DNA from: Patescibacteria group bacterium UBA6489
GTDB lineage: Bacteria > Patescibacteriota > Gracilibacteria > BD1-5 > UBA6164
Reading direction: 5' to 3'
Assembly (NCBI GenBank): GCA_002435385.1
Contig: DJMN01000007.1
Location: 10,695 to 74,694 of the forward strand
DNA length: 64,000 nt
In this document: in pieces, positions 1 to 15,696 of the stretch
How the letters are laid out: every line of letters begins with the position of its first letter
Numbering within the stretch: the stretch's first letter is position 1
Made by a program: the position numbers and the translations under genes
The notes under the pieces: generated by a model
Told to the model about the DNA's origin: nothing
The model's database searches: none
What the model saw: the letters and a program-made list of their open reading frames with translations, nothing else

Positions 1-2
1 TA

Positions 3-569
3 TGATGATCAATATGAAACTTTGAGTCTGATGAAAATCTTCAGTGTTGTGAATGATTAACTCCAGTTATTCCAAAATGATTTAATCCAGAGATGCCTTT
101 ACTAGATTCTCCATCTATATGTATAAAAAAATGAGATTGAGTTTGTGATGATAAATATGAAGATAGCTATAATTCTCCAGAGGATTGCAAAGAACAAAAA
201 GTATGTACTACAGATTATACTCCTGTTTGTTGAAGAGAAAAAATACTTTGTGAGATGGATTGATGCTGAGTAAACTTACCTAAAACATACTCTAATATGT
301 GTAAATTAGAAAATGATAATGCAATGTTTTTATATAATTGAGAATGTATAGAAGAGTGAGTTAAAGATAAAATAGATTCTATTATGTTAAAGCTAGAAGA
401 TAGGATTAAATCTACTGATAATACTATAGAAGAAAAAGTATGAATAATAGATAATTTAATAGATAAATTTAATGAGTTCTTAAACAAGACACCTAAATAT
501 TCATCAATAATCAATTATATTATAAATAGATTAGAAGAGATTATTTCATCTTTATATGGATTAGAATAA
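3..569 (+). CDS. Cys-rich secreted protein with Kazal-type inhibitor-like domain (5' end outside window)
   Basis: The frame is open from the window edge when TGA=Gly. CTTDYTPVCG...KTYSNMCKLENDNAMFLYNGEC resembles the Kazal core (PVCG, TYxNxC). TAA at 567-569. Confidence 0.5.
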
Positions 570-578
570 ATCTGTAAA

Positions 579-1577
579 TTAAAAATTATCCAATTTATAT
601 TCATCCCCTTCAGTAAAAACAGATATTCAATTATCTGTTTTTATTATTTTATCTATTTCTAAATCTGTCTCATAAATTATATCTCTATCCTTTGTTTCAG
701 GATTATATTTTATAACAAGGTTATTTCTTTTGTTTTCCCATCAGAAATTTTTCAGCTTTTTCTCTTCTCATTCATAGATAACTCAAATATATCATTCATT
801 TATATAAACAAAATCTTTAAACATATAAAAGTATTCAATACTATCTTTTTGGTAGTTATAAATGAAAGCTCATTTATCTGTTACAAAAATGAAACTATTA
901 TCATCTATTCATGATTTAGCATATGATATTTTAGGTGTTATTTCTAGTTTTCTTTTTGTGAAATTAATAGTATTTATCAAATATTTATTTTCTCAAAGAG
1001 TTAGCAATACATAATCAGAACCATAAACCTTTTCCATAAAAATTTTATCTTTTTCCACTTTTGAAAAAGTTCACAAATTACTTTCACCTAAAGATAAAAT
1101 TAGCCCTTCATAGTTAAGTTCAAAATAAAATTTTAGATTTTCTCATAGATTATGATAAGAATAGTATTTCTTTTTATTCATAAGATCTTCAGCTTTTTCT
1201 TGAACAGTCTTTTCTACTCAATCTGTTTCAACCTTTTCCAATTTATTTAATAATGTATCTTTTTCTAACTCTATACTAACTTCAAATTTATTTCTAGCAG
1301 GAATTTCTATATATTTTTCCACTTTCTTATAACCCTCTTTTGAAATTGATAACTTATATTCTAAAGGAGCCAAATCCTTTATAGTACATACATTTTCTTT
1401 ACAATTATAAGTAGCAAATTTTCATATACTTATTTTTTCTAAATACACCTCATATTCTGGAACATTAGAGTTTATAATCAAACTAGATGTATAGTAAACA
1501 AAGAAGTATAAATGTACCAAAAAACCAAAAGCAATAACTCAAATAAAGATTAAAATTCAAAGCACTCTATTAGACAT
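579..1577 (-). CDS. hypothetical membrane-anchored protein (332 aa)
   Basis: ATG at 1577 and TAA at 579-581, in frame only if in-frame TGA are read through. N-terminal hydrophobic helix. No recognised domain. Confidence 0.45.
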
Positions 1578-1696
1578 TTTTCATGAAATTATAAAATTAT
1601 ATGAAAATGATTATAATCTTTGATATCTAATTTGCAATTTAATAATTTCTTTATATCCTTTATAGAAATTATTTTATACTTATAACCTAGAAACAA

Positions 1697-2542
1697 GTGA
1701 GAATTGATTGAAAAAAGATAACAAGTTCTATTTATAGCAAAATAAAAAAAGAAATAGAATCATTAGATAAGAAACCTATACTATGAGTTATATTGGTTTG
1801 AAAAAATCCAGTTAGTCTTAGATATATAAAACAAAAAGAAAGACTAGCTACTTTTTGTGGTATGTGATTTGCTCTAAAACAGTTAGACCACAACATACCA
1901 GAGAAAAAACTTATAGAGACAATAGAAGAGTTCAATAACGATAGAAATGTAAGTTGATACATAGTACAATTACCACTACCAAAACATATAGATACAAAAA
2001 AGATATTGAGAACAATAAACCCAAATAAAGATGTAGATGGTTTCAGTCCTGAAAATGTAGGAAAAGTTATGATCTGAGATAATACAGGTTTTATACCATG
2101 TACTCCATTATGAATAATAGAAATAATAAAATACCTAGACATAAACCCAGAATGAAAAAATATAACAGTAATAGGGAAGAGTAATATAGTCTGAAAACCA
2201 ATCGCAGCATTACTGATGAATGCATGAGCTACTGTTACAGTCTGCAATAGCAAAACAAGAGATATTAGATCTTTCACAAGTGGTGCAGATATAGTAATAT
2301 GTGCAGCAGGAAAGCCAAATCTTTTGACTTTAGATATGATAAAAATGGATACAGTAGTTATTGATGTATGATTCACTATTGTTGATTGAAAAATTTTATG
2401 AGATGCAGACTTTGAAAACATAGATATTGCAGGAGTACAAATAACTCCAGTACCTTTTGGAGTATGACCACTAACAGTTGCGATGCTTATGAAAAATACT
2501 CTAAAGGCCTATAAAAAAGCTAATATAGGGATAAAATCTTAA
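1697..2542 (+). CDS. folD: bifunctional methylenetetrahydrofolate dehydrogenase/cyclohydrolase
   Basis: GTG start. The translation (TGA=Gly) gives RIDGKKI..., [24 protein letters not shown] and PVPFGVGPLTVAML, which are typical FolD motifs. TAA at 2540-2542. Confidence 0.85.
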
Positions 2543-2557
2543 TAAAAAGAGAAATTA

Positions 2558-2660
2558 AGAAATTAGAGAAATAATAATAAAACGAACTGTTAGAAGATTT
2601 ATACTAAGATTAATTGTAGAAAATCTTCTCCTGTGAGTGTATTATTTTTATCTAATTTCT
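2558..2660 (+). repeat. structured ~105-nt intergenic element, copy A (subfamily 1)
   Basis: About 90% identical to 44793-44896. Long outer stem (agaaattagagaaataataata / tattatttttatctaatttct), inner stem agaagattt/aaatcttct, and conserved internal and apical loops. Confidence 0.8.
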
Positions 2661-2697
2661 TGGGTTTATTTAATTTTTGTTCCATAACAAAAAAAAG

Positions 2698-2943
2698 ATG
2701 TCTAAAAAAAATAATAATATAAAAATATTTATTTCTTCTATACTTATAGTATTAGCATTTTTCTTGTGATATCTCTTTAGTGAAAATAAAACAAAATCTA
2801 AAATAGAACAACTAGAAAATAAAGAAAGTTATGTAAGTATAGAAAGAAAAGGGAAGAATGTAAATATAACAAATATAAATGAAAATATTATTTTGTTATT
2901 AGACTGAAAAGAGGTAGAATCAGGGGAAATAACACTAGAATAA
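2698..2943 (+). CDS. small membrane-anchored protein (81 aa)
   Basis: ATG..TAA in frame with two read-through TGA. One N-terminal TM helix. Confidence 0.35.
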
Positions 2944-3021
2944 ACACATTTTTAAAGAAAATAGAAAAAAATTTTGACTTTAGAAAGTTTTTTAATAAGA
3001 TATCTCTCGCATAGTTGATAT

Positions 3022-3098
3022 GCGGGTGTAGCTCAATTGGCTAGAGCATCTGCCTTCCAAGCAGAGGGTTGTGGGTTCGAGTCCCATCACCCGCTCCA
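3022..3098 (+). tRNA. tRNA-Gly (anticodon UCC)
   Basis: Hand-folded cloverleaf: acceptor gcgggtg/cacccgc, anticodon stem tctgc/gcaga, loop cTTCCaa, T-loop ttcgagt, encoded CCA. Confidence 0.9.
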
Positions 3099-3193
3099 TT
3101 TTCTTAGAAGATAGGAGTGAGTAAAAGTAGAAAGTAGAAAGTTTAGAACAGTACTTTCTAATAGAAATCTACTTTTTTTTGTTTATCTTCTTT

Positions 3194-3270
3194 GGGCGTA
3201 TAGCTCAGCTGGTTAGAGCGCACGACTGATAATCGTGAGGTCGGTGGTTCAAGTCCACCTATGCCCACCA
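3194..3270 (+). tRNA. tRNA-Ile (anticodon GAU)
   Basis: Acceptor gggcgta/tatgccc, anticodon stem cacga/tcgtg, loop ctGATaa, T-loop ttcaagt, encoded CCA. Confidence 0.9.
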
Positions 3271-3368
3271 TTTTAAGTTTCTCTTACGATAAGCGATAAC
3301 GAATCGGAAGGAAAGTTACATCGAGTAAACAAATGCGAATGAGATGGAGAGAATAACTATATTTTTTT

Positions 3369-3445
3369 CGGGAACTGGCGCAATCGGCTAGCGCACACGC
3401 TTTGGGAGCGTGGGGTTAAGAGTTCGAGTCTCTTGTTCCCGACCA
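3369..3445 (+). tRNA. tRNA-Pro (anticodon UGG)
   Basis: Acceptor cgggaac/gttcccg, anticodon stem cacgc/gcgtg, loop ttTGGga, T-loop ttcgagt, encoded CCA. Confidence 0.9.
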
Positions 3446-3501
3446 TACATGAAAAACTGATGAACTTCAATATTTCTATTTTGATATTGAAATTTTAATA
3501 A

Positions 3502-3546
3502 AAAGATAAAAGCACTAGATTTAATCTAGTGCTTTTATCTTTTCTA
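3502..3546 (+). terminator. rho-independent terminator after the tRNA cluster
   Basis: Perfect 19-bp stem aaagataaaagcactagat / atctagtgcttttatcttt with a 3-nt loop, followed by a T-run. Confidence 0.7.
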
Positions 3547-3643
3547 GTTTTTCTAAAAAACTTGGCATAATAGAAAAAAAAAGGGGGCTAAAATAAAGAG
3601 TATTTGGTAATATAAAGCCATATACTCTTTAACTTTTAGAACC

Positions 3644-3796
3644 ATGAATAAAAGTTACACAAAAAAATGTAAAAAATTTAGTTCATCAGAAATCAAAAAA
3701 GATTGATTTAAAAGATGAAAACAAAGATATAAATGTAAGTGTTGCTGACATGTATTTCAAAATAAAACAAGGAAAGCAAAGAATAGATATAAATAA
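3644..3796 (+). CDS. zinc-ribbon ORF of the IS (InsA-like N-terminal module), overlaps the transposase frame
   Basis: The 50-aa ORF contains ...GKQRYKCKCCGHVF, the QRYxCxxC motif typical of IS1/IS1595 transposase N-termini. It is offset +1 relative to the DDE frame. Confidence 0.4.
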
Positions 3797-4580
3797 GCTG
3801 TATAATAATTATTGTTTATGAAAACAAACCTATGAACAACTATCAGAAACATACTGAATATCAATAAAAACAGTTCAATCTAAACTAGATAAATATCAGA
3901 TACAAATACCACGAGTAAAAGTTCAAGAAGTAATTTTAGTAATAGATACAACATACTTTGGAGAATTTTGAGTTATGGTATTTAAAGATGCTTACAGAAA
4001 TAAAAATCTGCATATAAATATAGTAGATAGTGAGAATAATACTGATTACAAAAACTGAGTTAGAGAACTAGAAAAAGCTCGATGGATAATTAAAGCTATA
4101 GTTTGTGATTGAAGAAGATGATTACTTACTTGATTTGATAATATTCCTACTCAGATGTGTGATTTTCATCAAGTAGCGATAGTAAGAAGATATATAACTA
4201 AGAAACCTATTTTAGAAGCAAATAAGGCATTAAATTGGATAGCTAGATTACTTGTTAATACAGACAAAGAAACTTTTACTTATTATTTAGATTTATATTG
4301 AGAAAAATACTGAGATTTTCTTAAAGAAAGAAAATTAAATTCTAAGTGAAAACTTGAGTATATTCATAAAAGAACTAAATCTGCTTATTTTTCTTTAAAA
4401 AATAATTTGAAATATCTATTTACTTATTATGATTATATGTGACAGATAGATATTCCAAATACTACTAACTGATTAGAATGAATTTTCGGTCATTTTAAGG
4501 CTAATGTTAGCTTACATAGATGATCAAAAAAAGAGAGAAAAATTAAATTAATTTTATCTCTTTTATACGGAAAAATTTAA
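3750..4580 (+). CDS. DDE transposase (HTH + DDE; IS1/IS1595-like)
   Basis: With TGA=Gly: HTH QTYEQLSETYGISIKTVQSKL, VLVIDTTYFGEFGVMVFKD, IVCDGRRGL and NTTNGLEGIFGHFK (D, D, E region). It has many in-frame TGA, so it is adapted to the host code. The frame is also open upstream to 3633. Confidence 0.65.
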
Positions 4581-4625
4581 ACTTCTCAGCCACTCATTTT
4601 TTTCTATTATGCCAAACAAATCAAC

Positions 4626-4659
4626 AAAAAACTCACTAGTATCACTAGTGAGTTTTTTA
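4626..4659. terminator. bidirectional terminator between the IS and the island
   Basis: aaaaa-actcactagt-atc-actagtgagt-tttttt: perfect 10-bp stem flanked by an A-run and a T-run. Confidence 0.7.
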
Positions 4660-4672
4660 TATTTTACTCCTT

Positions 4673-6289
4673 TTATGTTAAATGTTTGTATGTAGAATAC
4701 TCAACTGCATGACGAGTTTGCTCTTTGCGGGCATCTTCAGCAATCAAGAAATTCACATTTTGCATGACGTCTGAGAGGTTTACATCTTCAGGGGATTCGC
4801 TAATGGCTCTTTCAGCAGCAACCTCAGCAATTGCATCGCGTAGGTTACTATTTGAAAGACCATGAGTTACGTCCAGAAATTTATCTTTTTCAGAGTTGTG
4901 AACCACTATGTCAAAGTGGTCAAACATCCTTTTAATAAATTCCCATTTATCATCCCCATCCAAATCAAGAATTGGAATTTTGATTTCAACACGACGTTGG
5001 AAATCGGTAGGTAAGTTTTGAGGACGTGAGGTATTAAAAACCCAATGGATTTTACCTCTATCACTATCGTCTCCCATCCAATCTAGTAATACTCCCATCA
5101 GTTCACGGTCAGTTTGATGATTATTATCATTTTCTGGATCAGCAAACATTGTGTCTGCTTCGGTTTTGACCAAAATCACCTTTCCAAAGCTTCGTACAAT
5201 CCGCTTCAATTTCTCTACAATTTCAAGGGTTTCTCCATACCATTTAGATTTGAGATTCCCTATTTTTAATGCAGGAAGATGGACTTCATGGATAAAAGCT
5301 TCAAGAATATAATCTTTTCCAACACCAGTTGGCCCAGTAAACATCAAACCTTTCCATATGAGCTTTTTATCACTTAAAAACATTCGTTTTTTCAGTTTAT
5401 CCAGCTCTTTTTTTATTTTTTCATATCCGATTACTGCATCATATCCATGACTAGTTTCCATTACAGAAACTTTTCCAGCCATATTCCTTGATATGATTGT
5501 TGAAACCTCATTACTAATATTTTCCTTAATACTTGAGCTATCTTCCTTGAGAATTGATTTTAAATTCGTCAAAGATATACCAGCAGATAGTAAGGAAATT
5601 TCAGCTATGAGTGCTTGATCAAACTCTCTATGATATTTTTCTGAAAAATATTCAATAAATCTGAGTCTTTCCAGTTGATCAGGGAGATTGAGTTCGATAT
5701 TTTCAAGGGTTGGAATATCTCTGATATCCTCATTGAGCGCGTAGAAATTTTTTGACAGCATAACAACCATGTTATTACTTGATACGAAATCTGAGCTTTC
5801 AAAAATTTCTCGTGCAGAAGAAATAATGAGTTTTTCATCCAAACCCATCTGATTGATGGGTTTGTTTGGAAAAATGATATCAGCATCTTCGATGATGATA
5901 ATCAGGTTTTTTACGTCTTTTTTCAGCTTTTTAAGTCTTGCATACTCCTCTAGAAGGGTTTTAATATGGTGAAGTCCAGAAACAATGTTATACTTTGAAT
6001 CAGCATAATCAAGACCAAAAATGAGCTTGTGTTTTTGTTCCAAGTCTTTATCATATGAGAAAAATTCTTGTTTATGGTAATCGCTTGAATAGCGAAAACC
6101 ACGAGATGGAGAATATAATACAACATGATTATTTTCTCCAAACTTTTGAACAAGAAGTTCACTTGGTTTATTTTCAGATATTTCATTGTTTTGTTCAACG
6201 AGGATAATATCTGAGATATTTCCAGTGACAGTAAAAATGTTACTAATATTTTTACTGTATAGATCAATAAGGTTTTGTAAAAAATTCAT
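4673..6289 (-). CDS. tandem AAA+ ATPase, classic (Vps4/Cdc48-like) clade, with non-canonical Walker motifs
   Basis: 538-aa TGA-free ORF. The C-terminal module has GPTGVGKD, LKSKWYGET, VILVKTEAD and NTSRPQNLPTDFQRRVE. The N-terminal half looks like a degenerate AAA domain (TGNISD, NLIIIIEDAD, IELNLPDQLERL). GGAG lies 8 nt upstream. TAA stop. Confidence 0.75.
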   Translation of the reverse strand: MNFLQNLIDLYSKNISNIFTVTGNISDIILVEQNNEISENKPSELLVQKFGENNHVVLYSPSRGFRYSSDYHKQEFFSYDKDLEQKHKLIFGLDYADSKYNIVSGLHHIKTLLEEYARLKKLKKDVKNLIIIIEDADIIFPNKPINQMGLDEKLIISSAREIFESSDFVSSNNMVVMLSKNFYALNEDIRDIPTLENIELNLPDQLERLRFIEYFSEKYHREFDQALIAEISLLSAGISLTNLKSILKEDSSSIKENISNEVSTIISRNMAGKVSVMETSHGYDAVIGYEKIKKELDKLKKRMFLSDKKLIWKGLMFTGPTGVGKDYILEAFIHEVHLPALKIGNLKSKWYGETLEIVEKLKRIVRSFGKVILVKTEADTMFADPENDNNHQTDRELMGVLLDWMGDDSDRGKIHWVFNTSRPQNLPTDFQRRVEIKIPILDLDGDDKWEFIKRMFDHFDIVVHNSEKDKFLDVTHGLSNSNLRDAIAEVAAERAISESPEDVNLSDVMQNVNFLIAEDARKEQTRHAVEYSTYKHLT

Positions 6290-6305
6290 ATTATTTTCTC
6301 CATTT

Positions 6306-6323
6306 CCCCATCATATGATGGGG
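6306..6323 (-). promoter_or_regulatory. perfect 18-nt palindrome just upstream of the AAA+ RBS
   Basis: ccccatcatatgatgggg. On the minus-strand mRNA it follows a U-run and lies 16 nt before the ATG, so it may be an intercistronic stabiliser or processing hairpin. Confidence 0.4.
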
Positions 6324-6339
6324 AAAAAAAGTGGTTGAG

Positions 6340-7242
6340 TTACTTCGCTGATTTGATGCTATCAGGATGATTGAGACTAAAATCCGATACCGGTTGTCTT
6401 ACATCTTCCTGGAAACACTCATAATCAGCCTTTTTTATCCATGTTTCCGTTTCTGGATGAAACATTCTGTCGCGCATGGATATCTCTTGACCCAAGAGTG
6501 GGTGAGCTTCATCAAAGGCAATTTTTGCACCTATATGCTCACCACCGTCATAATATCTGGTGAGAGCAATAAGTCGTGTTGCCAGTGCTGGAACATCTCC
6601 ATTGAGGTCGTGAGTCACAAACAATACAGTAATATTATGTTCGTGTTGGATTTTAACCAGACTTTTTCTGAGATCCATTTTGGTAATAGGATCGAGAGCA
6701 GAAAATGCTTCATCCATCAAAATCACTTTGGGTTTCATGATTAGTGCCGCAACGATGGCAACCCTCTGTTTTTGACCACCTGAGAGTTCAAAAGGATATT
6801 TATCCGCATGTTTTTCCATGTCAACCATTTTCAGGTATTCCATAGCTTGCTCGCGTACTTGCCTCATATATGGAGTATGAAGTTTGAAAAAGCTAAGTAT
6901 GTCATAGAAAACATTTTGGACGAATGGAGTGGAATCAAGAATAACCCCCTGCATTATATTTTGAACTGCTGTCATATTGGGAAACAAGGAATAGTCTTGT
7001 GGAACATAACCAATATGCCTATTTGGACCTTTTAGCAGATCTTCATCTACATGTATGAGACCTGAGATAGGCTTTTCTACACCAAGGATTTGGCGTAGAA
7101 GTGAAGATTTTCCAGCACCAGATGGACCAACGATACAAACAAGCTCTCCTTCACGAACATCTAGGTTAATATCATGAAGGATTACTTTTTCACTGTAAGT
7201 GACGTTCATGCCTCTTACTTTGATAAGAACATCTTTTTCCAT
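6340..7242 (-). CDS. ABC transporter ATP-binding protein (NitT/TauT family-like)
   Basis: GPSGAGKSS (Walker A), LSGGQKQRVAIVAAL (signature), ILMDEAFSALD (Walker B), VTHD (H-loop), and a C-terminal extension of about 60 aa. TAA stop. Confidence 0.9.
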   Translation of the reverse strand: MEKDVLIKVRGMNVTYSEKVILHDINLDVREGELVCIVGPSGAGKSSLLRQILGVEKPISGLIHVDEDLLKGPNRHIGYVPQDYSLFPNMTAVQNIMQGVILDSTPFVQNVFYDILSFFKLHTPYMRQVREQAMEYLKMVDMEKHADKYPFELSGGQKQRVAIVAALIMKPKVILMDEAFSALDPITKMDLRKSLVKIQHEHNITVLFVTHDLNGDVPALATRLIALTRYYDGGEHIGAKIAFDEAHPLLGQEISMRDRMFHPETETWIKKADYECFQEDVRQPVSDFSLNHPDSIKSAK

Positions 7243-7248
7243 AGATAT

Positions 7249-8166
7249 TTACCCCTTTTGATACCAGCGATACTTATACTTGATGACTAACTCAATACCA
7301 AAATAAAAAATCAAGGCAAGGATCGTAACAATCAAAATATAAGGTATGATGATATCATGTGCCATAAAACGTTTCAGAAGAAAGGTTCGAAAACCTAAGC
7401 CAGCTTGAACCCCAAGTGTTTCAGCAAAATATACACCAACCCAAGCCATAGGGAGACTCATTTGAAGTGATTTCAATATACCTGGGATAATCATTTTAAA
7501 ATTCCCCTTGGCAATTTCGAGTTCACTGGCTCCTTTGGTAAAGAATTGGGTATTCAGATTGAGAGGAATTCCTTTGAGTTGATGTACTATATCTTTAGTT
7601 AAAACAAAAAACAAAAAGATAAAGATGATTACTACTGAAAGTTCAAATCCAGGAGTAAAAGCAACAAAAAGGAGTGGAACAGTTGCAGGCGGAGGGATAA
7701 TACTTGCAATATTTATCGTGGGCATGATTATCGCCTCGATAATTGGAAAAGTTCCTGCAAGGATTCCAAACAGTATTGCTACTGCTGTGGTAATCAAAAT
7801 TCCAGAAACCAAAATATTCAAAGATGATTTTACATCAGTAAAAGTTTTTGGCTCACCAGTTTTTCTATCATTTTTTGTTGAATACTCAACAATCCCATCC
7901 CACATTCTTGAATAAGTAGGTAAAATCTTGTAAAGAGATCGTACCTCTTTTTCATAAGCTGTTAATTCTTGTCTTGGTTTATCAATAGCATTGTTATATA
8001 CTCCATCAATTTCCATAGACTTGAAGTGATACCACGATATAATGAGTACTATTGGTAATAACCCAAGTAGTACTTTTTGCCATAGTAGTAGCTTAGCCCT
8101 ATTACCAATAATATATCTCACTTTTGTTTCTCCGAAAATGAAAAGGTGGAGGTTTAAACCCTCCAC
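7249..8166 (-). CDS. ABC transporter permease (NitT/TauT family-like)
   Basis: Multi-TM ORF 6 nt upstream of the ATPase gene. The ORF-track start at 8166 is GTG and lies inside a hairpin. A likelier start is GTG 8121, preceded by GGAG. Confidence 0.8.
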   Translation of the reverse strand: MEGLNLHLFIFGETKVRYIIGNRAKLLLWQKVLLGLLPIVLIISWYHFKSMEIDGVYNNAIDKPRQELTAYEKEVRSLYKILPTYSRMWDGIVEYSTKNDRKTGEPKTFTDVKSSLNILVSGILITTAVAILFGILAGTFPIIEAIIMPTINIASIIPPPATVPLLFVAFTPGFELSVVIIFIFLFFVLTKDIVHQLKGIPLNLNTQFFTKGASELEIAKGNFKMIIPGILKSLQMSLPMAWVGVYFAETLGVQAGLGFRTFLLKRFMAHDIIIPYILIVTILALIFYFGIELVIKYKYRWYQKG

Positions 8167-8167
8167 C
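8145..8167 (-). terminator. intra-operon attenuator/terminator hairpin between the binding-protein and permease genes
   Basis: ggtggagg-tttaaac-cctccacc (8-bp GC-rich stem). On the minus strand it is followed by cttttcattttc. Confidence 0.5.
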
Positions 8168-8197
8168 TCTTTTATTACACGAAACGATATAACCTAC

Positions 8198-9220
8198 TTA
8201 CTCTACGTCGAATTTGACGGTAACAGGAGCAGACATATCGCCACCTTTGTTTCCATGCAGCTCATAAGCTGCTTTTGACTTGAATTCAGAGAAAAACCCA
8301 TAATCCTTAGCCAGTTTATAGGTATCTTCCTGAAATTTGGGGAAATCCCCTTGGTAGAATGCCATTTCCTCATCAGGAGTAAAGATTTTACTTCCACCCA
8401 ACATAGTTTTGACTTCACCTAGGCTATTCCCAGTTTTATTCATGATCTCCAACATCAATGAATTGTATTCATCACCACGACCAGACAGAATCACGGAAGC
8501 AGTTTTATCCCACAATGCACGCAGGAATTTTGCCTTGTGGTCAAAATCATCCACATCAGTTCCCAATGCAATCATATCGATAATGGTTTTGGGAAATTCA
8601 GCGGATGTTCCAGCCATGTTTCCTTCAGAGCTGTAGGCAGTATCCAAGGCAGGATTCCATGTGACAATATTGTCATATTTCCCTGCCAAATAACCAGACA
8701 GTAACACCGAATCTGCATCCACATGAATCAGGTTGAAATCCTTTTGGGGATCAAGTCCCATGGATTTTGCCTTTTCGATGAAAAGCTGTTCAGAGATGCT
8801 TGCTCGAACCATGTATACATCCTGTCCCTTGATATCATTCAAAGAGCTCCCATTTCTGAGTATAATACCATCATTACCAGCAGAATAATCTTGCAAGACA
8901 ATGGCGGTCATGTTACGACCAGAAAGGGCTAGCATTTGGTCCAGGTTGGTTACTGTTACTGCATCAACAGCAGCAGTACTGGCCATTGCCAGAGACTGTA
9001 GATAGTCGGGTTGATGGTTGAGGCTCAGCTTACATCCGTATTGTCTCTCAATGTCATTATAGAGCCCCGCATTCTGAGCTGCATCAATTGCAACCCAGTT
9101 TATATACAGGCTTGTACTCAAGCTTACATCACAAGTGTTTGCAACGACCGATGATAGTCCCACAACGACCGATGACAATCCCACAACAATAGAAATTACA
9201 ATTTTTACAAATTGTCTCAT
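8198..9220 (-). CDS. periplasmic substrate-binding protein, SsuA/TauA (NMT1-like) family
   Basis: Signal peptide. NDGIILRNGSSLNDIKGQDVYMV...LIHVDADSVLLSGYLAGKYDNIVTWNPAL matches the NitT/TauT binding-protein pattern. AGGAG RBS. TAA stop. Confidence 0.75.
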   Translation of the reverse strand: MRQFVKIVISIVVGLSSVVVGLSSVVANTCDVSLSTSLYINWVAIDAAQNAGLYNDIERQYGCKLSLNHQPDYLQSLAMASTAAVDAVTVTNLDQMLALSGRNMTAIVLQDYSAGNDGIILRNGSSLNDIKGQDVYMVRASISEQLFIEKAKSMGLDPQKDFNLIHVDADSVLLSGYLAGKYDNIVTWNPALDTAYSSEGNMAGTSAEFPKTIIDMIALGTDVDDFDHKAKFLRALWDKTASVILSGRGDEYNSLMLEIMNKTGNSLGEVKTMLGGSKIFTPDEEMAFYQGDFPKFQEDTYKLAKDYGFFSEFKSKAAYELHGNKGGDMSAPVTVKFDVE

Positions 9221-9274
9221 CTTTTTCTCCTACTAGAGTCGTAAAATGTTAATGACCAATACTATAACTATTTT

Positions 9275-9287
9275 GGCTATAATAGCC
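9275..9287. promoter_or_regulatory. 13-bp palindrome (candidate operator) at the predicted transcription start of the ABC operon
   Basis: ggctat-a-atagcc, immediately downstream of the -10 box. Confidence 0.35.
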
Positions 9288-9293
9288 TTCTAT

Positions 9294-9321
9294 ATAATAG
9301 ATGGAAAAAATAAAAAGTCAA
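9294..9321 (-). promoter_or_regulatory. sigma70-type promoter of the ABC/AAA+ operon
   Basis: Minus strand: TTGACT (9321-9316), 16-nt spacer, TATTAT (9299-9294). Confidence 0.5.
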
Positions 9322-9497
9322 TTTTTTTTTCAGTTCTATTGTAGTAATCCTTCTTTTCAGATTTAGCGATAACGGTATCTGGAGTTTTTTTTATGGCTAT
9401 TCAAATCAAAAGGCTGTTTGTGAAGACGGATAATCTTTTCTTCATTGCTCTTCTATATATCAACTTATTGTGGCTTTGTTAAATCATAATTGAAGAT

Positions 9498-9532
9498 AAA
9501 AAAAGGCACATGGGGTTTCCATGTGCCTTTTT
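9498..9532 (-). terminator. rho-independent terminator after the pspA-like gene
   Basis: ggcacatgg-ggttt-ccatgtgcc, followed on the minus strand by a T7 run. Confidence 0.75.
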
Positions 9533-9575
9533 CGCTCTCCTTTTTTTACGATTTTGTTTTGTTTGGGTTTTAGAC

Positions 9576-10376
9576 TTAGACTTTTCGCTCAGTCTCAGAA
9601 ATTTCCTCTACAGGTACGGTAGAACCTGCTTTTTTTGCCTTGTTTGCAGCAGCACGCTCGGCAAGTATTTTCTGGAGTTTATCGTTTGAAGCGGAGCCTT
9701 TGACTCTATTTTTGTAACGCTTCATACGATTATCCATATTGGTACCAGATACCTCCTTAGCTACGCTAAGTTCAGCTTTTTCTTGTGCCAGTTTTTGCCT
9801 TACAGCAGAGACCGCACTCATATCATCAGATTGCATCAGACCAGAACGTTCCGCTTCTACATCCTTCCTAAGACGTACGATTTCCATTTGGGCAACCGTA
9901 CTTTCCGCCTCTTGTTCGAGACCACGGATCTCTTCCGATAGATCCCTCATGACAGCTACATACTCTTCCTTATCAGCATTAAGAGCCTCAATATTTGAGG
10001 CTAATGATTCCTGCTCTGAATCAATTGCTGTTTGGCGAGCATCCAGACGGTTGAAATCTTCCAAAAGTTCAGCATTTTCAGGGTCTTCTTCAATTTCTTG
10101 AATAAGACCTTCGATTGCTTCCCCCAGTTCAGCTTCTTCATCACTGAGCTCTTTCAATTTCAATTCCAGTTGACTTTGCTCCATCTGAATGCGACCAACC
10201 GCCGTTTTGATGTTGTTAAATCTTTCGATTTTATCATCTTTGGCTTGGTTGTACGTAGCCCTGATAGCATCTGGACTAGAAGTCTGGGCTGCCTTGATGC
10301 CTTTGTCCATCTTGTAGGTACCAATGCTCAGTACCCACATAGCACCACGAAAAATAGTTTTGAAAAAACTAGCCAT
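9576..10376 (-). CDS. pspA: PspA/IM30 (phage-shock protein A / Vipp1) family coiled-coil protein
   Basis: 266 aa starting at MASFFKTIFRG (amphipathic N-terminus). SPDAIRATYNQAKDDKIERFNNIKTAVGRIQMEQSQLE followed by long heptad-rich helices. The ATG overlaps the upstream TAG (ATGGCTAG). GGAG RBS. The ORF track extends the ORF to 10421. Confidence 0.6.
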   Translation of the reverse strand: MASFFKTIFRGAMWVLSIGTYKMDKGIKAAQTSSPDAIRATYNQAKDDKIERFNNIKTAVGRIQMEQSQLELKLKELSDEEAELGEAIEGLIQEIEEDPENAELLEDFNRLDARQTAIDSEQESLASNIEALNADKEEYVAVMRDLSEEIRGLEQEAESTVAQMEIVRLRKDVEAERSGLMQSDDMSAVSAVRQKLAQEKAELSVAKEVSGTNMDNRMKRYKNRVKGSASNDKLQKILAERAAANKAKKAGSTVPVEEISETERKV

Positions 10377-11217
10377 GTTTTTCTCCATACTTTTGATAAA
10401 GGTTTTTGAGATTTTGCTCATCGCTCATGCTAAATCGATTGAGTCTTGCTTGAACTTGTTTCGATGCTTCAACAGCTAAAGTAAGCTCATCTGAATTTCG
10501 GTTCACTATATTTTGTGAATCAAAACTTGATGTTGCTGAAGCTAGATTGAGTTCACTGGATTGGAACGACAAGATAAGCTTTTGAAGGACAGAGGTCAGT
10601 TCAGAAATTTTTTGTTCATTACTGTTGTAAATCCCAATATTTTTCTGAATGATAGCTCTGTTTTCTTTATCAGCTTTACTTAATTGCCTTTCTAACTTCG
10701 AAAGACTGGTTTTGCTTTGAATGACTTGTAAATCGGCAATCTCCTTTAAAAGGTTTACGCCTGAATGAAAACCTTGATCGGCTTTCGATTCAAACTCATA
10801 AAAAAGCTCTTCAGATATGATTTCCTGATCCCTGATGGCATGAACAAACGATTGATACGAATTCCAGAGGTCTTTTTTGAGTTTTTCACCACCTTTTAGG
10901 TTGTATAACTCAATTTCATTGAACTCTGCCCTTCGCTTTTCTTTCATCTGTTCTTTATGCCAATCTTGGTATATCAGTGCACCTTCCTTGGCTATTTCTT
11001 CAGCATTAGCTATCCGATACCACCAAAATGATGTACCGAGGATACCAAGAGGAATCAGTGAAAAAATCTGAAAAAAGGATGGTATACTACTCAAAGCTAT
11101 CCCTAGAGGGGTAGCTATAAGGCTGACAAGACCAAAGAGAGTGAGCGGACTACGTTTAAATTTCTCCTTCACATAGTTATGTGCAAACTCTCTTGCTTCC
11201 TCTAAGTAGCTGGACAC
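10369..11217 (-). CDS. 2-TM hairpin membrane protein with long cytoplasmic coiled coil (putative PspA partner)
   Basis: GTG start with GGAG 8 nt upstream. Two hydrophobic helices (LTLFGLVSLIATPLGIALSSIPSFFQIFSLIPLGILGTSFWWY) followed by about 190 aa of helical sequence. Translationally coupled to the pspA-like gene. Confidence 0.6.
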   Translation of the reverse strand: MSSYLEEAREFAHNYVKEKFKRSPLTLFGLVSLIATPLGIALSSIPSFFQIFSLIPLGILGTSFWWYRIANAEEIAKEGALIYQDWHKEQMKEKRRAEFNEIELYNLKGGEKLKKDLWNSYQSFVHAIRDQEIISEELFYEFESKADQGFHSGVNLLKEIADLQVIQSKTSLSKLERQLSKADKENRAIIQKNIGIYNSNEQKISELTSVLQKLILSFQSSELNLASATSSFDSQNIVNRNSDELTLAVEASKQVQARLNRFSMSDEQNLKNLYQKYGEKHG

Positions 11218-11239
11218 ATTGTTTTCTCCGTAAGGTTAG

Positions 11240-12823
11240 TTAGTAGTCAATGAACATAATCTCAACTGTATTGTTATCATTGATGTAGTTTCCATAACTT
11301 TGTCCAGCTTTTTTAGCAGGAGTCATAGTAGAACCAACACCAATTGATGAAATACGATTTGGATCGATTTGGTAGTACTTTTGTAGGTATTTATATACCC
11401 GATCAGATTTTGCCTGAGTCCTTTGTTGTATAACTTCTTCGTTAATTCCGCGTATTTGCGCAGATTTTCCAACGATAGCGATATAATAGTCAAAGTTCCC
11501 AATTTGCTGCTGTGCAAAGCGATCAAGAATTGCTTTCGCATTGTTATCCAATTTTCCATCACGAAGAAATGTTATCTTCAAGTCATCACGAGTGAATTTT
11601 GGATTCCTAATAAGTTTACGCCAAGTCGATTCTTGGAGTTTTGTGTAAACTCTTGCTTCTGCTGCAGGCTTTTTTATGGCATCATCTGGATACGAGTTAA
11701 ACACACCCCTGAGTACTTTGTCATAAACAATGGATCTTGAGTCACCATTTGGAAGCGGTGATTCAGGAATTGCATCCATTTTTATCAGTTTAATGACAAT
11801 AGCATCAATATAGTCTAAGACTTTTCCTTCAGATGAAGAATTCGCCCTGAAAAGTGTGTAACTGTTATCGGCAAGGTTGTAAAAATGAACACCTGCTAAG
11901 TTTTCGGCTATCTCAATTTGATCTCGAGCATCTTTACCTCCACCTTCGGTAAGTTCAATTTCACTATACAGTTCTGTTGGGTTGTTAGCGTAATAGCTAA
12001 CAGACTCATAGTAGCTGTATAGCATGTTTTGTATGCTTTCCGGTTTTTCTAGCAGAACACCCCTGTTTACAACGTATACATCAACGATTCTTGCAAGTTT
12101 CAGTTCATTGGATCCCATTAGCACTTCATAACCTTGTTTTTTAGCTCTTGAAATGTATGGTTCCCATAGTCCTGCTACTTTACATTTATCACTGAGTAAG
12201 TCGGCGTAGGTTTGTTCAATATCTTCATTTGCTTTTCCTTTCAGAAGAATAGGAAGCCCTGTGTCTACTGCCATGCTTCCAAGCATGAAACGAGATGTAT
12301 AACAGGAATCAACTTTTAAAAGTCCTTTTAAATCATTGATGCTTTTGAAGTTTTTCGGGTCTGCAAGTACTGCATCAGATCCTGTTGACCAGGATATTGC
12401 TGCAACAATCACAGGAGCTTTGCTTGTATCTACCCCAAGATGATAGAGCTGCTCCAGATAATCATGAATAGGCATTACTGCAAAATCATATTCACCTGAA
12501 ACAAGTTTTTTCACCCGAGAAGGATAATCTCCTTTATCATCGATAAAGTTGAGAGCTAACGATTTTTTTTGAAGCTCGAATTTGAATCTCTTGCTTCTCA
12601 AAATCGCATATCCGTCATAGCCATCACCAGCACCATTGAGTATTGTTTCCTCTTTAGATGACTGGGTTAGCTTTGCGATTTTTTCCTGCTTTCTATCTTC
12701 ACCAACCTTATCAAAGACGCCTTTGTAGTCCAGAAAAGCAACAATACTGGCAATGATAGCTGTCCAAACAAGTATGGGAAAAATATACTTATTTCGTGAA
12801 GAACCGGTAGATGGCCCATTCAT
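11240..12823 (-). CDS. membrane-anchored SsuA-like binding domain fused to an OmpA-like peptidoglycan-binding domain
   Basis: N-terminal TM (YIFPILVWTAIIASIVAFL). Central NMT1/SsuA-like region (STGSDAVLADPKNFKSINDLKG...GLWEPYISRA). C-terminal OmpA-like region (YYIAIVGKS...RTQAKSDRVYKYLQ...RISSIGVGSTMP). The likely start is the 2nd ATG (12823) after GGAGG. The ORF track starts at 12835. Confidence 0.6.
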   Translation of the reverse strand: MNGPSTGSSRNKYIFPILVWTAIIASIVAFLDYKGVFDKVGEDRKQEKIAKLTQSSKEETILNGAGDGYDGYAILRSKRFKFELQKKSLALNFIDDKGDYPSRVKKLVSGEYDFAVMPIHDYLEQLYHLGVDTSKAPVIVAAISWSTGSDAVLADPKNFKSINDLKGLLKVDSCYTSRFMLGSMAVDTGLPILLKGKANEDIEQTYADLLSDKCKVAGLWEPYISRAKKQGYEVLMGSNELKLARIVDVYVVNRGVLLEKPESIQNMLYSYYESVSYYANNPTELYSEIELTEGGGKDARDQIEIAENLAGVHFYNLADNSYTLFRANSSSEGKVLDYIDAIVIKLIKMDAIPESPLPNGDSRSIVYDKVLRGVFNSYPDDAIKKPAAEARVYTKLQESTWRKLIRNPKFTRDDLKITFLRDGKLDNNAKAILDRFAQQQIGNFDYYIAIVGKSAQIRGINEEVIQQRTQAKSDRVYKYLQKYYQIDPNRISSIGVGSTMTPAKKAGQSYGNYINDNNTVEIMFIDY

Positions 12824-12845
12824 GATTACCTCCATAAAGGGTTGA

Positions 12846-12874
12846 GAAGGACTCCTAAACTTCAGGAGTCCTTC
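12846..12874 (-). promoter_or_regulatory. intercistronic hairpin (11-bp stem)
   Basis: gaaggactcct-aaacttc-aggagtccttc, between the vWA stop and the next start. No U-run follows. Confidence 0.4.
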
Positions 12875-12880
12875 ATGGGG

Positions 12881-13519
12881 TTAAAAGTCTTGCACGACGA
12901 ACTCGGAACTTCCAGGTACCTCAGCCTTGATTGCCTGTTTAAGGGCATTCGTTAGCTGTTGAGTTGATGAAGCATCGGCAAAGTCGGTTACTTGCATCAA
13001 CTTATGCCTAGTAATTCCAAACCCAATGGTCTTTATATTGATTCCACTTGCAATTGCTTCGTCAACGGCGTTAAGCATACGTTCTTCTTTGTCTGCCGCA
13101 CCATCAGTTACAACTACAATGGTATAAAAACCATATCCACCTTGCGATTGTTTCTGCTGATCCAAGTACTGTTTTACAGCCAGGATAGCAGGACCGATAG
13201 GAGTACCCCCACCAGCCTTCAATTGATTTACAGAATTAATAGCATCTTGTTTCTTACCCATTATATTCTGTAGTTGAACAATATATCCATGATTGAGAGC
13301 ATAAATACCAAAATTGTAATCATCTGGTATCCCTTGAATCAGCTGAACCACAGATTCTTTTGCTTGATCAAGCTTGCTTTTCCAAAATATGGATCCCATA
13401 CTTCCAGAATCATCAAAGATAATGACTACGTTCTTTCTCAGGTTAAGGTCTTCTTCCGCTGTGGCCGTAAACGGTAAGTAAAGGATTCCCAAGAAGATAA
13501 AAATCCAAAATTTATTCAT
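12881..13519 (-). CDS. secreted von Willebrand factor type A (vWA) domain protein
   Basis: Signal peptide. Intact MIDAS residues: VVIIFDDSGSMG (DxSxS), GGGTP (T), VVVTDGA (D). GGAGGAG RBS. Ends ...EFVVQDF. Confidence 0.85.
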   Translation of the reverse strand: MNKFWIFIFLGILYLPFTATAEEDLNLRKNVVIIFDDSGSMGSIFWKSKLDQAKESVVQLIQGIPDDYNFGIYALNHGYIVQLQNIMGKKQDAINSVNQLKAGGGTPIGPAILAVKQYLDQQKQSQGGYGFYTIVVVTDGAADKEERMLNAVDEAIASGINIKTIGFGITRHKLMQVTDFADASSTQQLTNALKQAIKAEVPGSSEFVVQDF

Positions 13520-13533
13520 TTTTTATCTCCTCC

Positions 13534-15252
13534 TTAGAAGTCTTGAACGGCTTCAAATGATTGAATTTCCGCGTTATAATTGGTTACGTTAAACTCAACA
13601 CGGATATTGCTATCAAATTCGGCTTGGTTTTTCGGACGTTCGTGAATAGGGCTTCCTGCTCCATCACCATGAACAACGAGTTTATAGGCCTGCAAGTCAA
13701 TCTTGTTTGCGATTGCATAATCAACAATAGCTGCCTTAACAGCATTTGCACGTTCCTTTGAAGTGCGTTCAGCTGCATTTTGGACGTTGTTACGTTCCAT
13801 GGTAATGCGTTGGATAGACATCTGAGCCAGATTGTAGTTGCTTTTCAACACTTTGTTGAGATAAGCTTCCACTTTCATAAGTCCAGTGTTATTTCCACTT
13901 TTCTTAAACTCAATTGCCTTATTCCACCCACGCAGTAGGGATGGATCAACATGACCCACAATATTTAGAACTGCACCAGGATAGGTATTGGCATAGTTTA
14001 TTACTGCATCGAAATTTTTTCCATATTCGCTTACAGTGAAACTATTTTGGTTGGGCTCAAACAGAATTTTGTCTGAAAAAAGTACTTGACCTTGTCCAGA
14101 CTTTTTCAGTTCGGATACTTCTTGCTCAATTCTGGCAGTCACCTCTTTATCTGCCTGTAGGACATGAGCTTCCTGTGATACTTTGACATTCCAGTCAGTC
14201 ACAGGAATATTCAGATCTCCATTAGAAACCAATCCCACTTTTTTGAACTCACCAACGATTCTTGCAACTTTCCGAGGAAAGTTGTTTGGGTTGGTAGGTG
14301 AGTACATAAAGTTGTTACTTATTTCCATGTTATGGAAACGGGCATCGTCACGCAAGCCTTCAGTATCAGCAATATTCTGATGACTTGCGCTTCCGAACAT
14401 AATGGTTGCAGCCTCTTTTACGAGATTACCATCCAATAGTTTGGTTTTTGCAGCACTCAAAAAACCCTCACGGATTTTTTTCAGCTGAGCTTTGTTGTCC
14501 TTTGCCCAATCGGAACGAACCAAGATGATATCCTTGATTGATTCGTTCATTGCCTTGGTTGTAACCAGTATAGACAGACCAGGTATTGCGGCCGTTCCCT
14601 CAGTGAGGGTGGCAGCACTTGGACTGATGACGAAAGCCATATCAATAGATTGATCTTCAGCAATAGCAGTTTCTGGTGAATCATCACCAAAAAGGTTTGG
14701 CAGATATTTGATGTTTATATCCGTAATCGAAAGACCATTCTTTGTCAACAAATCAACCAGCCATCCCATATGGGGGCCGCCATACTGAATGGCAACCGTA
14801 ACGGTTTTACCACCTTTAACTGCAGTAACAAATTCATTGATGTTGTTAAAGCTACGAGTAACCACAACATCCCCACCATTAGAATCGGTCACAGAATGGA
14901 AAATTTCCATTTTAACACCTACCGATTGCAAAGCATCAACAAGCATTGTACCAGAGCCCACCGTTTGGCGAATAAACGGAGTTTTACCGGAGATGACATT
15001 CTTGATTTGCTCAAGAGGATCATCAACCAGCTTTACACCGCCAGGAAACAAGGATATGTTTCCTAATGCCAGAATCATATCTCCCCAGGTAATACCTTGG
15101 TAGATATAATCCTTTGATACGGGTTGGACGGATACTCCTGATACCTGTTGGTAAAAAGGAGTTGGCGAGATGTAATTGACAGCCTTAGCATTTGTCATAC
15201 CTATAAATATTGTTAGTAAAATAACAATACTAAGAATTCCATGTTTTTTCAT
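13534..15252 (-). CDS. secreted SsuA-like binding domain fused to a C-terminal OmpA-like domain
   Basis: Signal peptide MKKHGILSIVILLTIFIGMTNA. Central binding-protein-like fold (TVAIQYGGPHMGWLVDLLTKNGL...). C-terminal ILFEPNQNSF...LNIVGHVD...ERANAVKAAIVDY...GDGAGSP. Ends ...FEAVQDF. Confidence 0.6.
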   Translation of the reverse strand: MKKHGILSIVILLTIFIGMTNAKAVNYISPTPFYQQVSGVSVQPVSKDYIYQGITWGDMILALGNISLFPGGVKLVDDPLEQIKNVISGKTPFIRQTVGSGTMLVDALQSVGVKMEIFHSVTDSNGGDVVVTRSFNNINEFVTAVKGGKTVTVAIQYGGPHMGWLVDLLTKNGLSITDINIKYLPNLFGDDSPETAIAEDQSIDMAFVISPSAATLTEGTAAIPGLSILVTTKAMNESIKDIILVRSDWAKDNKAQLKKIREGFLSAAKTKLLDGNLVKEAATIMFGSASHQNIADTEGLRDDARFHNMEISNNFMYSPTNPNNFPRKVARIVGEFKKVGLVSNGDLNIPVTDWNVKVSQEAHVLQADKEVTARIEQEVSELKKSGQGQVLFSDKILFEPNQNSFTVSEYGKNFDAVINYANTYPGAVLNIVGHVDPSLLRGWNKAIEFKKSGNNTGLMKVEAYLNKVLKSNYNLAQMSIQRITMERNNVQNAAERTSKERANAVKAAIVDYAIANKIDLQAYKLVVHGDGAGSPIHERPKNQAEFDSNIRVEFNVTNYNAEIQSFEAVQDF

Positions 15253-15332
15253 GGTTGTTTTCTCCAGTTTAAAATTTCTGAGAATGTTAACGAGCGTACT
15301 AAGATACTAAGGATTATTTCTTAGATTTTTAA

Positions 15333-15360
15333 AATATAAAAAATAAATACAAAATGTCAA
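15333..15360 (-). promoter_or_regulatory. sigma70-type promoter of the five-gene pspA module
   Basis: Minus strand: TTGACA (15360-15355), 16-nt spacer, TATATT (15338-15333), about 80 nt upstream of ATG 15252. Confidence 0.5.
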
Positions 15361-15660
15361 GATAAAATGGGAAGAATTTTTCACGAAATGCAACTTTTAC
15401 ATTTTTATATGTCAATTAAACTCCTCTATCTCAGTTCTAATCCTCTACTATATGACTTACTTGAACAAGAACATAAATTTCTCATGATTTTTTTGAGATG
15501 AATATGAAGAGGAATTTAATGGCGAGTGATGGTTTTTCTATAAAGAAATACTTGATTTTACAATTGAGAGATTTGATCCTCATATGCATAAATGTATACA
15601 AAAATTGAAATTAAAATCTAATTTTTAAATTTTCACAAAAATCACTATTGAAAAATTAGA

Positions 15661-15696
15661 AAAATAACTACAAAATATTTATCTTGTAGTTATTTT
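15661..15696. terminator. orphan terminator-like hairpin in the noncoding tract
   Basis: aaaataactacaa-aatatttatc-ttgtagttatttt. Confidence 0.4.

Follow-up and report, generated by a model that had tools for sequence, protein, structure and literature searches.

We identified a tandem AAA+ ATPase with an altered magnesium site in a stretch of 64,000 nucleotides from Patescibacteria group bacterium UBA6489 (contig DJMN01000007.1, positions 10,695 to 74,694), which is referred to below as the window. The gene is the last of a nine-gene cassette that also encodes a PspA-like helical protein. Its product is best explained as a rewired member of the PspA-linked motors in which an inactive AAA domain is followed by a classical AAA domain, and which would remodel helical membrane proteins. 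We place the probability of this reading at roughly 0.55. A remodelling link between such ATPases and PspA has already been published as a prediction (PMC11237479). New here are the rewired active site of the second AAA domain (D2) and an intermediate form of it, a cassette enlarged by a vWA protein and a second OmpA-type protein, and the presence of the cassette as a TGA-free island in a genome with genetic code 25. What is shown directly here concerns the architecture of the domains, the states and conservation of the motifs, the linkage of the genes and the limits of the operons.

Domains and active-site motifs of the ATPase

The Pfam AAA profile (PF00004) covers residues 315-439 of the protein (E 4e-14). 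An AlphaFold2 (AF2) model built with 13 homologues has a predicted local distance difference test score (pLDDT) of 87 and a predicted template modelling score of 0.83. In Foldseek searches this model matches the D1-D2 bodies of Rix7, Afg2/Drg1 and Cdc48/p97 over its full length (E ~1e-19), and the N-terminal half (D1) is therefore a true but degenerate AAA fold. The initial annotation, which was made from the sequence alone, had described a tandem AAA+ protein whose D1 is degenerate and whose D2 is of the classical clade, and the profile match, the model and the structural search all bear this out. The open reading frame (ORF) and every motif quoted there lie where they were placed, including NTSRPQNLPTDFQRRVE, which had been likened to the second region of homology (SRH). 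The features of the gene, all on the minus strand, are as follows.

4673..6289, minus: tandem AAA+ ATPase, 538 aa, with an ATG start, GGAG upstream and a TAA stop
5480-6289, minus (residues ~1-270): D1, degenerate AAA domain (AF2 and Foldseek)
6209..6226, minus (residues 22-27): D1 remnant TGNISD, after strand beta-1 in the place of the P-loop, without the lysine
5879..5902, minus (residues 130-137): D1 Walker-B-like strand IIIIEDAD (AF2 and alignment)
4673-5479, minus (residues ~271-538): D2, classical-clade AAA domain (PF00004, AF2 and Foldseek)
5312..5335, minus (residues 319-326): D2 Walker A GPTGVGKD, with Asp326 in the place of the Mg-coordinating Ser/Thr
5228..5251, minus (residues 347-354): pore loop 1 KSKWYGET, invariant across the subfamily
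5153..5179, minus (residues 371-379): D2 Walker B VILVKTEAD, with Lys375 and Thr376 for a hydrophobic residue and Asp; Glu377 is kept
5102..5104, minus: Glu396 in the helix after Walker B, which is Arg in 96% of canonical members
4985..5035, minus (residues 419-435): sensor-1 strand and SRH NTSRPQNLPTDFQRRVE, with Asn419 and the arginine fingers Arg432 and Arg433

A GN..D motif that is kept family-wide replaces GxxxxGK[ST] in D1. Lacking the P-loop lysine, this domain is probably a scaffold or adaptor. In D2, a HMMER alignment to Afg2 sets GKD against GKT and KTE against IDE, and alignment to solved AAA proteins sets GPTGVGKD against GPPGTGKT and VILVKTEAD against SIIFIDEID. D2 thus carries Asp at the Walker A Ser/Thr position and Thr at the Walker B Asp position and retains the catalytic Glu, in agreement with the original view that its magnesium-site residues are non-canonical. 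A canonical P-loop NTPase has Ser/Thr next to the Walker A Lys and closes the Walker B strand with Asp; D2 of the window ATPase has neither. The motifs are not an artefact, since 13 protein clusters share them and independent samples contain further loci that have them too.

A rewired magnesium site in a rare subfamily

Among 5.8 billion proteins, a word-indexed search returned 12 relatives of the ATPase that share 42-63% identity with it and a further one that shares 26%. When 1.84 billion cluster representatives were searched exhaustively with a profile, 838 clusters had E < 1e-30; only three of these belong to the close subfamily, and the score falls from 640 to 346 bits at the next match. 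The GKD-type family is rare. A metagenome scan added few close relatives and no further intermediate forms.

Motif states were compared in an alignment of 162 sequences. GKD is present in 13 of 13 subfamily clusters, whereas 147 of the 149 other family members sampled have GK[TS], and nearly all of these have a hydrophobic residue and then Asp-Glu in Walker B. In the 13 close relatives and in further loci, the corresponding Walker B segment reads [KR][TNPS]E. Since the relatives carry Thr, Asn, Pro or Ser at its second position, the Walker B Thr is not a conserved feature. The conserved features of the subfamily are the Walker A Asp and the Lys/Arg just ahead of the lost Walker B Asp. A position scan of D2 yielded the subfamily-specific set, which consists of Thr326 to Asp, hydrophobic 375 to Lys/Arg, loss of Asp376, Arg396 to Glu, and hydrophobic 419 to Asn. 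The two Mg-coordinating residues had originally been described as reciprocally swapped. The swap is confined to a few members, the window ATPase included; family-wide, the change is a rewiring of five positions.

We also found an intermediate form, P0015, in a SAR324 genome (locus L014), which has GKS, KPE, Glu396 and Asp at position 419. Thus the GKD group pairs Asp326 with Asn419, and the intermediate pairs GKS and KPE with Asp419. Invariant residues among the relatives at 42-63% identity are G319, G322, G324, K325, D326, K347 to T354, E377, A378 and D379, as well as T420 to P423 (the TSRP of sensor 1), R432 and R433. In contrast to this invariant catalytic apparatus, D1 has decayed in the subfamily. 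Because the catalytic elements of D2 are invariant beside the linked changes, the changes look like compensated rewiring under selection rather than decay. D2 is most likely an active, substrate-threading ATPase, as judged from its sequence, since the Walker A Lys, the catalytic Glu, an aromatic pore loop and the arginine fingers are all kept.

The pattern of substitutions suggests that the metal-site carboxylate has been relocated off the Walker B strand. The Mg2+ site may have been rebuilt so that Asp326 of the P-loop provides the carboxylate that the Walker B Asp normally contributes; in the SAR324 intermediate, residue 419 on the sensor-1 strand would provide it instead. The basic residue would likewise have shifted from helix alpha3 (Arg396 to Glu) to the Walker B strand (Lys/Arg375). 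We infer the contact between Asp326 and Mg and the pairing of Lys375 with Glu396 from general AAA+ topology and from covariation.

Comparison with known AAA+ systems

Ravi et al. (mSystems 2024; PMC11237479) reported that bacterial PspA sometimes occurs with a protein of two AAA+ domains, of which the N-terminal one is inactive. In the longer operons that they described, genes for an ABC ATPase and a permease are joined by those for a PBPB+OmpA protein and for a Snf7-like protein with a membrane anchor; a Clostridium operon consists of regulator, ATPase and PspA only. They proposed ATP-dependent membrane remodelling and compared the system to Snf7 and Vps4. The window ATPase resembles this family in that it has two AAA folds, the N-terminal one without nucleotide-binding residues, and in its full-length homology to other members (E 4e-27 for the canonical relative P0013; E < 1e-30 for the 838 clusters). 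The partners are of the same kinds, although the two helical proteins are assigned by architecture or fold, not by sequence. The product of 10369..11217 in the window shares its architecture with the 'TM+Snf7' protein of Ravi et al., and the organisation of their example, a Candidatus Handelsmanbacteria operon around OGG56892.1, matches that of the canonical relatives described below. The window ATPase differs from the family in its D2 site (GKD, [KR][TNPS]E, Glu396, Asn419). The window cassette encodes additional proteins, namely a vWA protein, another OmpA-type protein and a soluble substrate-binding protein that is encoded separately, and it has a different gene order. Moreover, its PspA-like and membrane-anchored proteins are too diverged for recognition by sequence.

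The initial annotation had also placed the ATPase in a Vps4/Cdc48 clade, and a specific affinity to Vps4 is not supported by the comparisons. Like Vps4 and CdvC, the window ATPase is of the classical clade, has a KW-aromatic pore loop and a contiguous RR arginine-finger motif, is genetically paired with a putative ESCRT-III-superfamily-like protein, and has a proposed role in polymer disassembly. However, it has no MIT domain by Pfam, residues 1-270 being a degenerate AAA, and it scores 40 bits on the CdvC model NF041006, for which the cut-off is 650. It also differs in having two AAA folds rather than one, a non-canonical Mg site, and periplasmic OmpA/vWA and ABC partners. A 2025 review considers that a Vps4-like ATPase appears to be absent in bacteria, and Makarova et al. 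(2024) describe ESCRT systems as confined to archaea and eukaryotes.

The best full-length structural matches (E ~1e-19) and the best D2 sequence matches are to Cdc48/p97, VAT, Afg2/Drg1 and Rix7. Unlike Cdc48/p97 and VAT, the window ATPase has no double-psi-barrel N domain, its D1 lacks the P-loop lysine, and it reaches 31 bits on TIGR01243 (CDC48), where the cut-off is 803. Among curated families it scores best with CdvC, CDC48 and the proteasome-activating nucleotidase, staying far under the threshold of each. In PDB profile searches D2 scores 122 with Afg2 and 95 with p97 (each two stretches summed), 74 with katanin and ~73.5 with CdvC/Vps4, and by score it cannot be assigned between the Cdc48/Afg2 and the Vps4/katanin clades. 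The placement of the ATPase in an unrelated AAA family, which had been named as an outcome that would speak against a tie to PspA, was not observed; canonical members of its family lie in operons with Pfam-recognised PspA.

The Walker A Ser/Thr and the Walker B Asp have been described as strictly conserved, with exceptions mainly among nucleotide monophosphate kinases, and the pair has been proposed as a universal proton relay (Kozlova et al. 2022; PMC9599734). Our literature search gave no report of an AAA+ protein with a GKD Walker A. The nearest precedent for this motif is in the sigma-54 activators (NtrC/PspF/CbrB), which belong to a different AAA+ clade from the window ATPase. These are active AAA+ proteins with the Walker A GESGTGKE, in which an acidic residue stands right after the Lys (PMC8871633). 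However, that residue is Glu rather than Asp, the Walker B Asp-Glu pair is kept, and there is no relocated Walker B carboxylate.

A PspA-like neighbour

The 270-residue product of the gene at 9576-10388, which had originally been taken for PspA, gave no PspA match in Pfam or NCBIfam at lax thresholds, and PF04012 had no match at E up to 10 in nine members of its family. PDB profile searches with this protein (using 5 and 9 sequences) returned neither PspA nor Vipp1. Comparison by hhalign with a Pfam-positive PspA (locus L009) gave a probability of 14% alone and 21% with a 121-sequence alignment, and the register was inconsistent.

An AF2 model of the protein, made with a shallow alignment of database homologues, has an overall pLDDT of 67. 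It contains helices at residues 3-34, 39-101, 106-184, 193-211 and 233-253, and the hairpin formed by the 63- and 79-residue helices has a pLDDT of 82-92. The protein begins with an amphipathic helix at the N-terminus, continues with the long alpha1/alpha2-3 hairpin and ends in a C-terminal helix and tail that are conserved. In Foldseek searches, Vipp1 accounts for 7 of the 10 best PDB matches (E 4e-3 to 5e-2), and PspA ranks 16 and 23, with E to 0.1. From the helix architecture and this marginal fold match, the product can tentatively be called PspA/ESCRT-III-like. The original naming of the gene finds agreement in these two features and in none of the sequence tests, and its identification as PspA is not secure. 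The C-terminal helix KLQxILAxRAA and an ER-x-hydrophobic tail at the extreme C-terminus are both conserved, and could be a docking element for the ATPase.

Organisation of the cassette and its variants

The remaining genes and the putative transcription signals of the cassette, all on the minus strand, are listed in the order of transcription.

15333..15360, minus: promoter-like site before the first cassette gene (TTGACA, 16-nt spacer, TATATT; 11/12; consensus match only)
13534..15252, minus: secreted protein, 572 aa, with a signal peptide and an OmpA-like C-terminus (weak YiaD/OmpA-like match); present in all loci
12881..13519, minus: secreted vWA-domain protein with a signal peptide (PF00092, E 2e-13)
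11240..12835, minus: membrane-anchored periplasmic-binding-protein-like protein, 531 aa, with an N-terminal anchor and an OmpA-like C-terminus (weak SsuA/TIGR03427 matches)
10369..11217, minus: membrane-anchored coiled-coil protein, 282 aa, with a hydrophobic stretch at ~residues 23-60 (hydropathy)
9576..10388, minus: PspA/ESCRT-III-like helical protein, 270 aa (AF2 and Foldseek)
9495..9532, minus: intrinsic terminator just after the PspA-like gene (-20.7 kcal/mol, T run)
9294..9321, minus: promoter-like site of the ABC and ATPase unit (TTGACT, 16-nt spacer, TATTAT; 10/12; consensus match only)
8198..9220, minus: secreted substrate-binding protein, TIGR03427/NMT1-like (E 1e-38; signal peptide by hydropathy)
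7249..8166, minus: ABC permease (BPD_transp_1) of the taurine/sulfonate/nitrate type (profile matches)
6340..7242, minus: ABC transporter ATP-binding protein (PF00005, E 3e-34)
4624..4660, minus: intrinsic terminator after the ATPase gene (17-bp stem, T run; -19.7 kcal/mol)

The homologue of the 11240..12835 protein in locus L016 matches PF00691 (OmpA) at E 4e-18. The signal peptide of the substrate-binding protein contains a tandem 21-nt duplication (9142-9183, 90% identical) that gives a repeated GLSSVVV.

The 355-bp gap downstream of the PspA-like gene holds both the terminator at 9532-9495 and the promoter-like site at 9321-9294. The cassette therefore appears to consist of two units in the window, with the ATPase co-transcribed with the ABC genes, and the ATPase is 'one operon away' from the PspA-like gene, as had been stated from the sequence. 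In most relatives the corresponding gap is 10-16 bp, which indicates a single operon.

The cassette is present in 10 distinct loci, namely the window and nine others from Campylobacterota, an unclassified marine bacterium, metagenomes and a second TGA-recoded genome. Its order is the 572-aa OmpA-like protein, the vWA protein, a ~523-aa binding-protein/OmpA-like protein, a ~280-aa coiled-coil protein, a ~264-aa PspA-like protein, the importer (substrate-binding protein, permease and ABC ATPase) and, last, the AAA gene. The PspA-like and membrane-anchored coiled-coil genes occur in all ten loci, and the ABC genes accompany the ATPase in nine. The SAR324 locus L014 (4256-11716) is without the three ABC genes and has the PspA-like gene directly upstream of the ATPase. 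The linkage to a PspA-like gene noted in the initial annotation therefore holds throughout the subfamily loci. A lack of PspA-like genes near the ATPase in other genomes, or an ATPase that always travels with the ABC transporter alone, had been put forward as results that would count against this linkage; we found neither.

A second version of the cassette is represented by the canonical relatives. The ATPase at 26% identity (P0013; 84% coverage) lies in an operon with PspA_IM30, a 161-aa ORF, an NMT1+OmpA protein, a permease, an ABC gene, a 281-aa protein and the AAA gene. Searches started from three further PspA proteins of this clade led each time to essentially this operon, minus the small ORF. 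Pfam-recognised PspA and ABC genes are thus present in 4 of 4 canonical loci, one of which was reached via the ATPase and three via PspA queries.

The third version occurs in a pair of candidate phyla radiation (CPR) loci from Spechtbacteria and Saccharibacteria, L015 (3210-11728) and L016 (1450-11425). They retain two OmpA-type proteins, the vWA protein, the membrane-anchored coiled-coil protein and an ATPase with canonical motifs, and have a TelA-family gene (PF05816) in the place of the PspA-like gene. The coiled-coil counterparts in these loci match the 282-aa protein of the window by hhalign (95%, E 2.6e-8). No homology was found between the PspA-like protein and TelA, nor between the PspA-like protein and the membrane-anchored coiled-coil protein. 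A reading of the cassette as a defence system was considered and rejected, as six cassette proteins gave zero PADLOC hits.

Proposed function and alternatives

From the motifs, the gene linkage and the comparisons above we infer ATPase activity, metal coordination, substrate identity and physiological role. The ATPase would be a hexamer-type, classical-clade AAA+ remodelling motor of a family that travels with PspA/Snf7-like proteins in bacteria. It would probably disassemble or recycle cytoplasmic helical proteins, namely the PspA/ESCRT-III-like protein and the membrane-anchored coiled-coil protein, by analogy with the action of Vps4 on ESCRT-III. This activity may be coupled to a peptidoglycan-anchored periplasmic module of two binding-protein/OmpA-like proteins and the vWA protein and, usually, to the ABC importer as well. 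The initial annotation had suggested that the ATPase and PspA form a remodelling pair. The gene linkage is in favour of this suggestion, but the idea is not new, having already been proposed by Ravi et al. (PMC11237479).

Several observations weigh against this proposal. None of the sequence tests for PspA (Pfam, PDB profiles, and hhalign with a probability of 21%) recognises the PspA-like protein. Its matches in Foldseek have marginal E-values, and a long hairpin of helices will match many coiled coils. PspA is not a universal partner, because L015 and L016 carry a TelA-family gene instead. At the active site, the covariation reflects only one or two evolutionary events, and loss of the Walker A Ser/Thr together with the Walker B Asp could mean weak or no hydrolysis.

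Another possibility is that the PspA-like protein is not the client and that this part is played by the membrane-anchored coiled-coil protein, or by a complex of binding-protein/OmpA-like and vWA proteins that spans the envelope. The ATPase would then act as an assembly or quality-control chaperone for that complex, and the soluble helical protein would be an exchangeable accessory. Only the ATPase, a membrane-anchored coiled-coil protein and an OmpA-type, binding-protein-like periplasmic protein are constant, by architecture, in all three versions of the cassette, and the soluble helical protein varies between a Pfam-recognised PspA, a PspA-like protein and TelA. In canonical operons, moreover, the ~282-aa membrane-anchored protein is encoded directly upstream of the ATPase, and PspA is four genes off. 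However, the PspA-like gene adjoins the coiled-coil gene in every window-type locus and abuts the ATPase gene where the ABC genes are missing. Periplasmic proteins cannot directly touch a cytoplasmic ATPase, and no sequence homology was detected between the membrane-anchored proteins of the window-type and canonical cassettes. We regard this explanation as unlikely, though it deserves serious weight.

It is improbable, in our view, that D2 is itself degenerate, that is, a pseudo-ATPase or a very slow switch that serves as a nucleotide-dependent scaffold without productive Mg-ATP hydrolysis. Both of the missing residues have been called strictly conserved and catalytically important (PMC9599734), and D1 of the same protein is evidence that AAA decay is possible in the family. 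Yet the Walker A Lys, the Walker B Glu, the sensor-1 strand, the arginine fingers and the pore loop are invariant in the subfamily, and the fixed, apparently compensating Asp326, Lys/Arg375, Glu396 and Asn/Asp419 are unlike the free decay of D1. An acidic residue after the Walker A Lys is also compatible with activity, as in the sigma-54 activators (PMC8871633).

An accessory or regulatory function of the ATPase in the neighbouring ABC importer, with no functional tie to the helical membrane proteins, is very hard to credit. In its favour, the ATPase of the window is co-transcribed with the ABC genes and a terminator separates it from the PspA-like gene; ABC genes are also present in 9 of 10 window-type and 4 of 4 canonical loci. 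However, tblastn detected no ABC transporter homologue in L014, L015 and L016, all of which have the ATPase, and the Clostridium operon comprises regulator, ATPase and PspA only (PMC11237479).

A TGA-free island in a recoded genome

With the standard bacterial code, long ORFs are nearly confined to 4.6-15.3 kb of the window; when TGA is read as sense, they extend throughout. In-frame TGA codons fall on universally conserved glycines of FolD (GVgP, where g is the TGA codon), inositol monophosphatase (DPVDgT) and RimK (GSHgKgI), and host genes (1-4600 and 15300-64000) contain 9-54 TGA codons against 3-15 GGN. From these two observations we conclude that the host uses genetic code 25, in which TGA specifies glycine. 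This code is familiar from Gracilibacteria and Absconditabacteria. Together with a G+C content of ~25% in the window (22-31% in sampled host genes), the recoding points to a bacterium of the Gracilibacteria or Absconditabacteria type.

The nine cassette genes (4673-15252) have a G+C content of 34-43% and encode glycine by GGN. They contain no in-frame TGA in ~3,450 codons. All nine stop codons are TAA or TAG, and some low-GC donors are also without any of the TGA stops that could be read as a sign of host adaptation. Judged by composition and codon usage, the cassette (4673-15360) is a foreign, TGA-free island in a code-25 genome. The closest cassette (L002, GCA_041156785.1) is in another TGA-recoded genome, has an ATPase that is 63% identical, and is likewise TGA-free. 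The next-closest cassettes are from Campylobacterota and SAR324. A TGA-free cassette in two recoded hosts could reflect recent transfer or an element that shuttles between hosts.

Three tRNA genes and an insertion sequence (IS)-like element mark the boundary of the island on one side.

3022-3445: tRNA cluster Gly-TCC, Ile-GAT and Pro-TGG, adjoining the IS-like element and the island
3562-4615: IS-like element with terminal inverted repeats, directly beside the island terminator

The inverted repeats are 28 nt in length (3562-3589 and 4588-4615) and 86% complementary, and the ORF between them (3633-4580, read with code 25) has no Pfam match. The tRNA cluster may be an integration hotspot. A search for direct repeats flanking the island gave no convincing pair; the IS-like element has inverted repeats only. 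Rfam matched the three tRNAs and no other structured RNA in the window. On the other side, between the island promoter and a host MFS gene, ~1.4 kb (15400-16700) are without an ORF of at least 150 aa in either code. The MFS transporter, whose start is near 16745, is the next host gene past the island.

Implications

We tentatively propose, at somewhat below even odds, that the GKD subfamily is a working motor with a relocated metal-site carboxylate, acting in a horizontally moved bacterial ESCRT-III/Vps4-like machine that has reached a host with a different genetic code. If this is true, the subfamily would be a natural counter-example to the 'strictly conserved' pair of Walker A Ser/Thr and Walker B Asp. 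It offers a natural experiment on P-loop catalysis, in which both residues are displaced, the remaining apparatus is conserved and an intermediate exists; because the apparatus is otherwise conserved and an intermediate form is available, reversion mutants could show which carboxylate position matters. The compact, always-linked cassette provides a defined gene set for reconstitution. More broadly, the family that joins an inactive to a classical AAA domain is the leading bacterial candidate for the ATP-dependent remodelling of ESCRT-III-like proteins.

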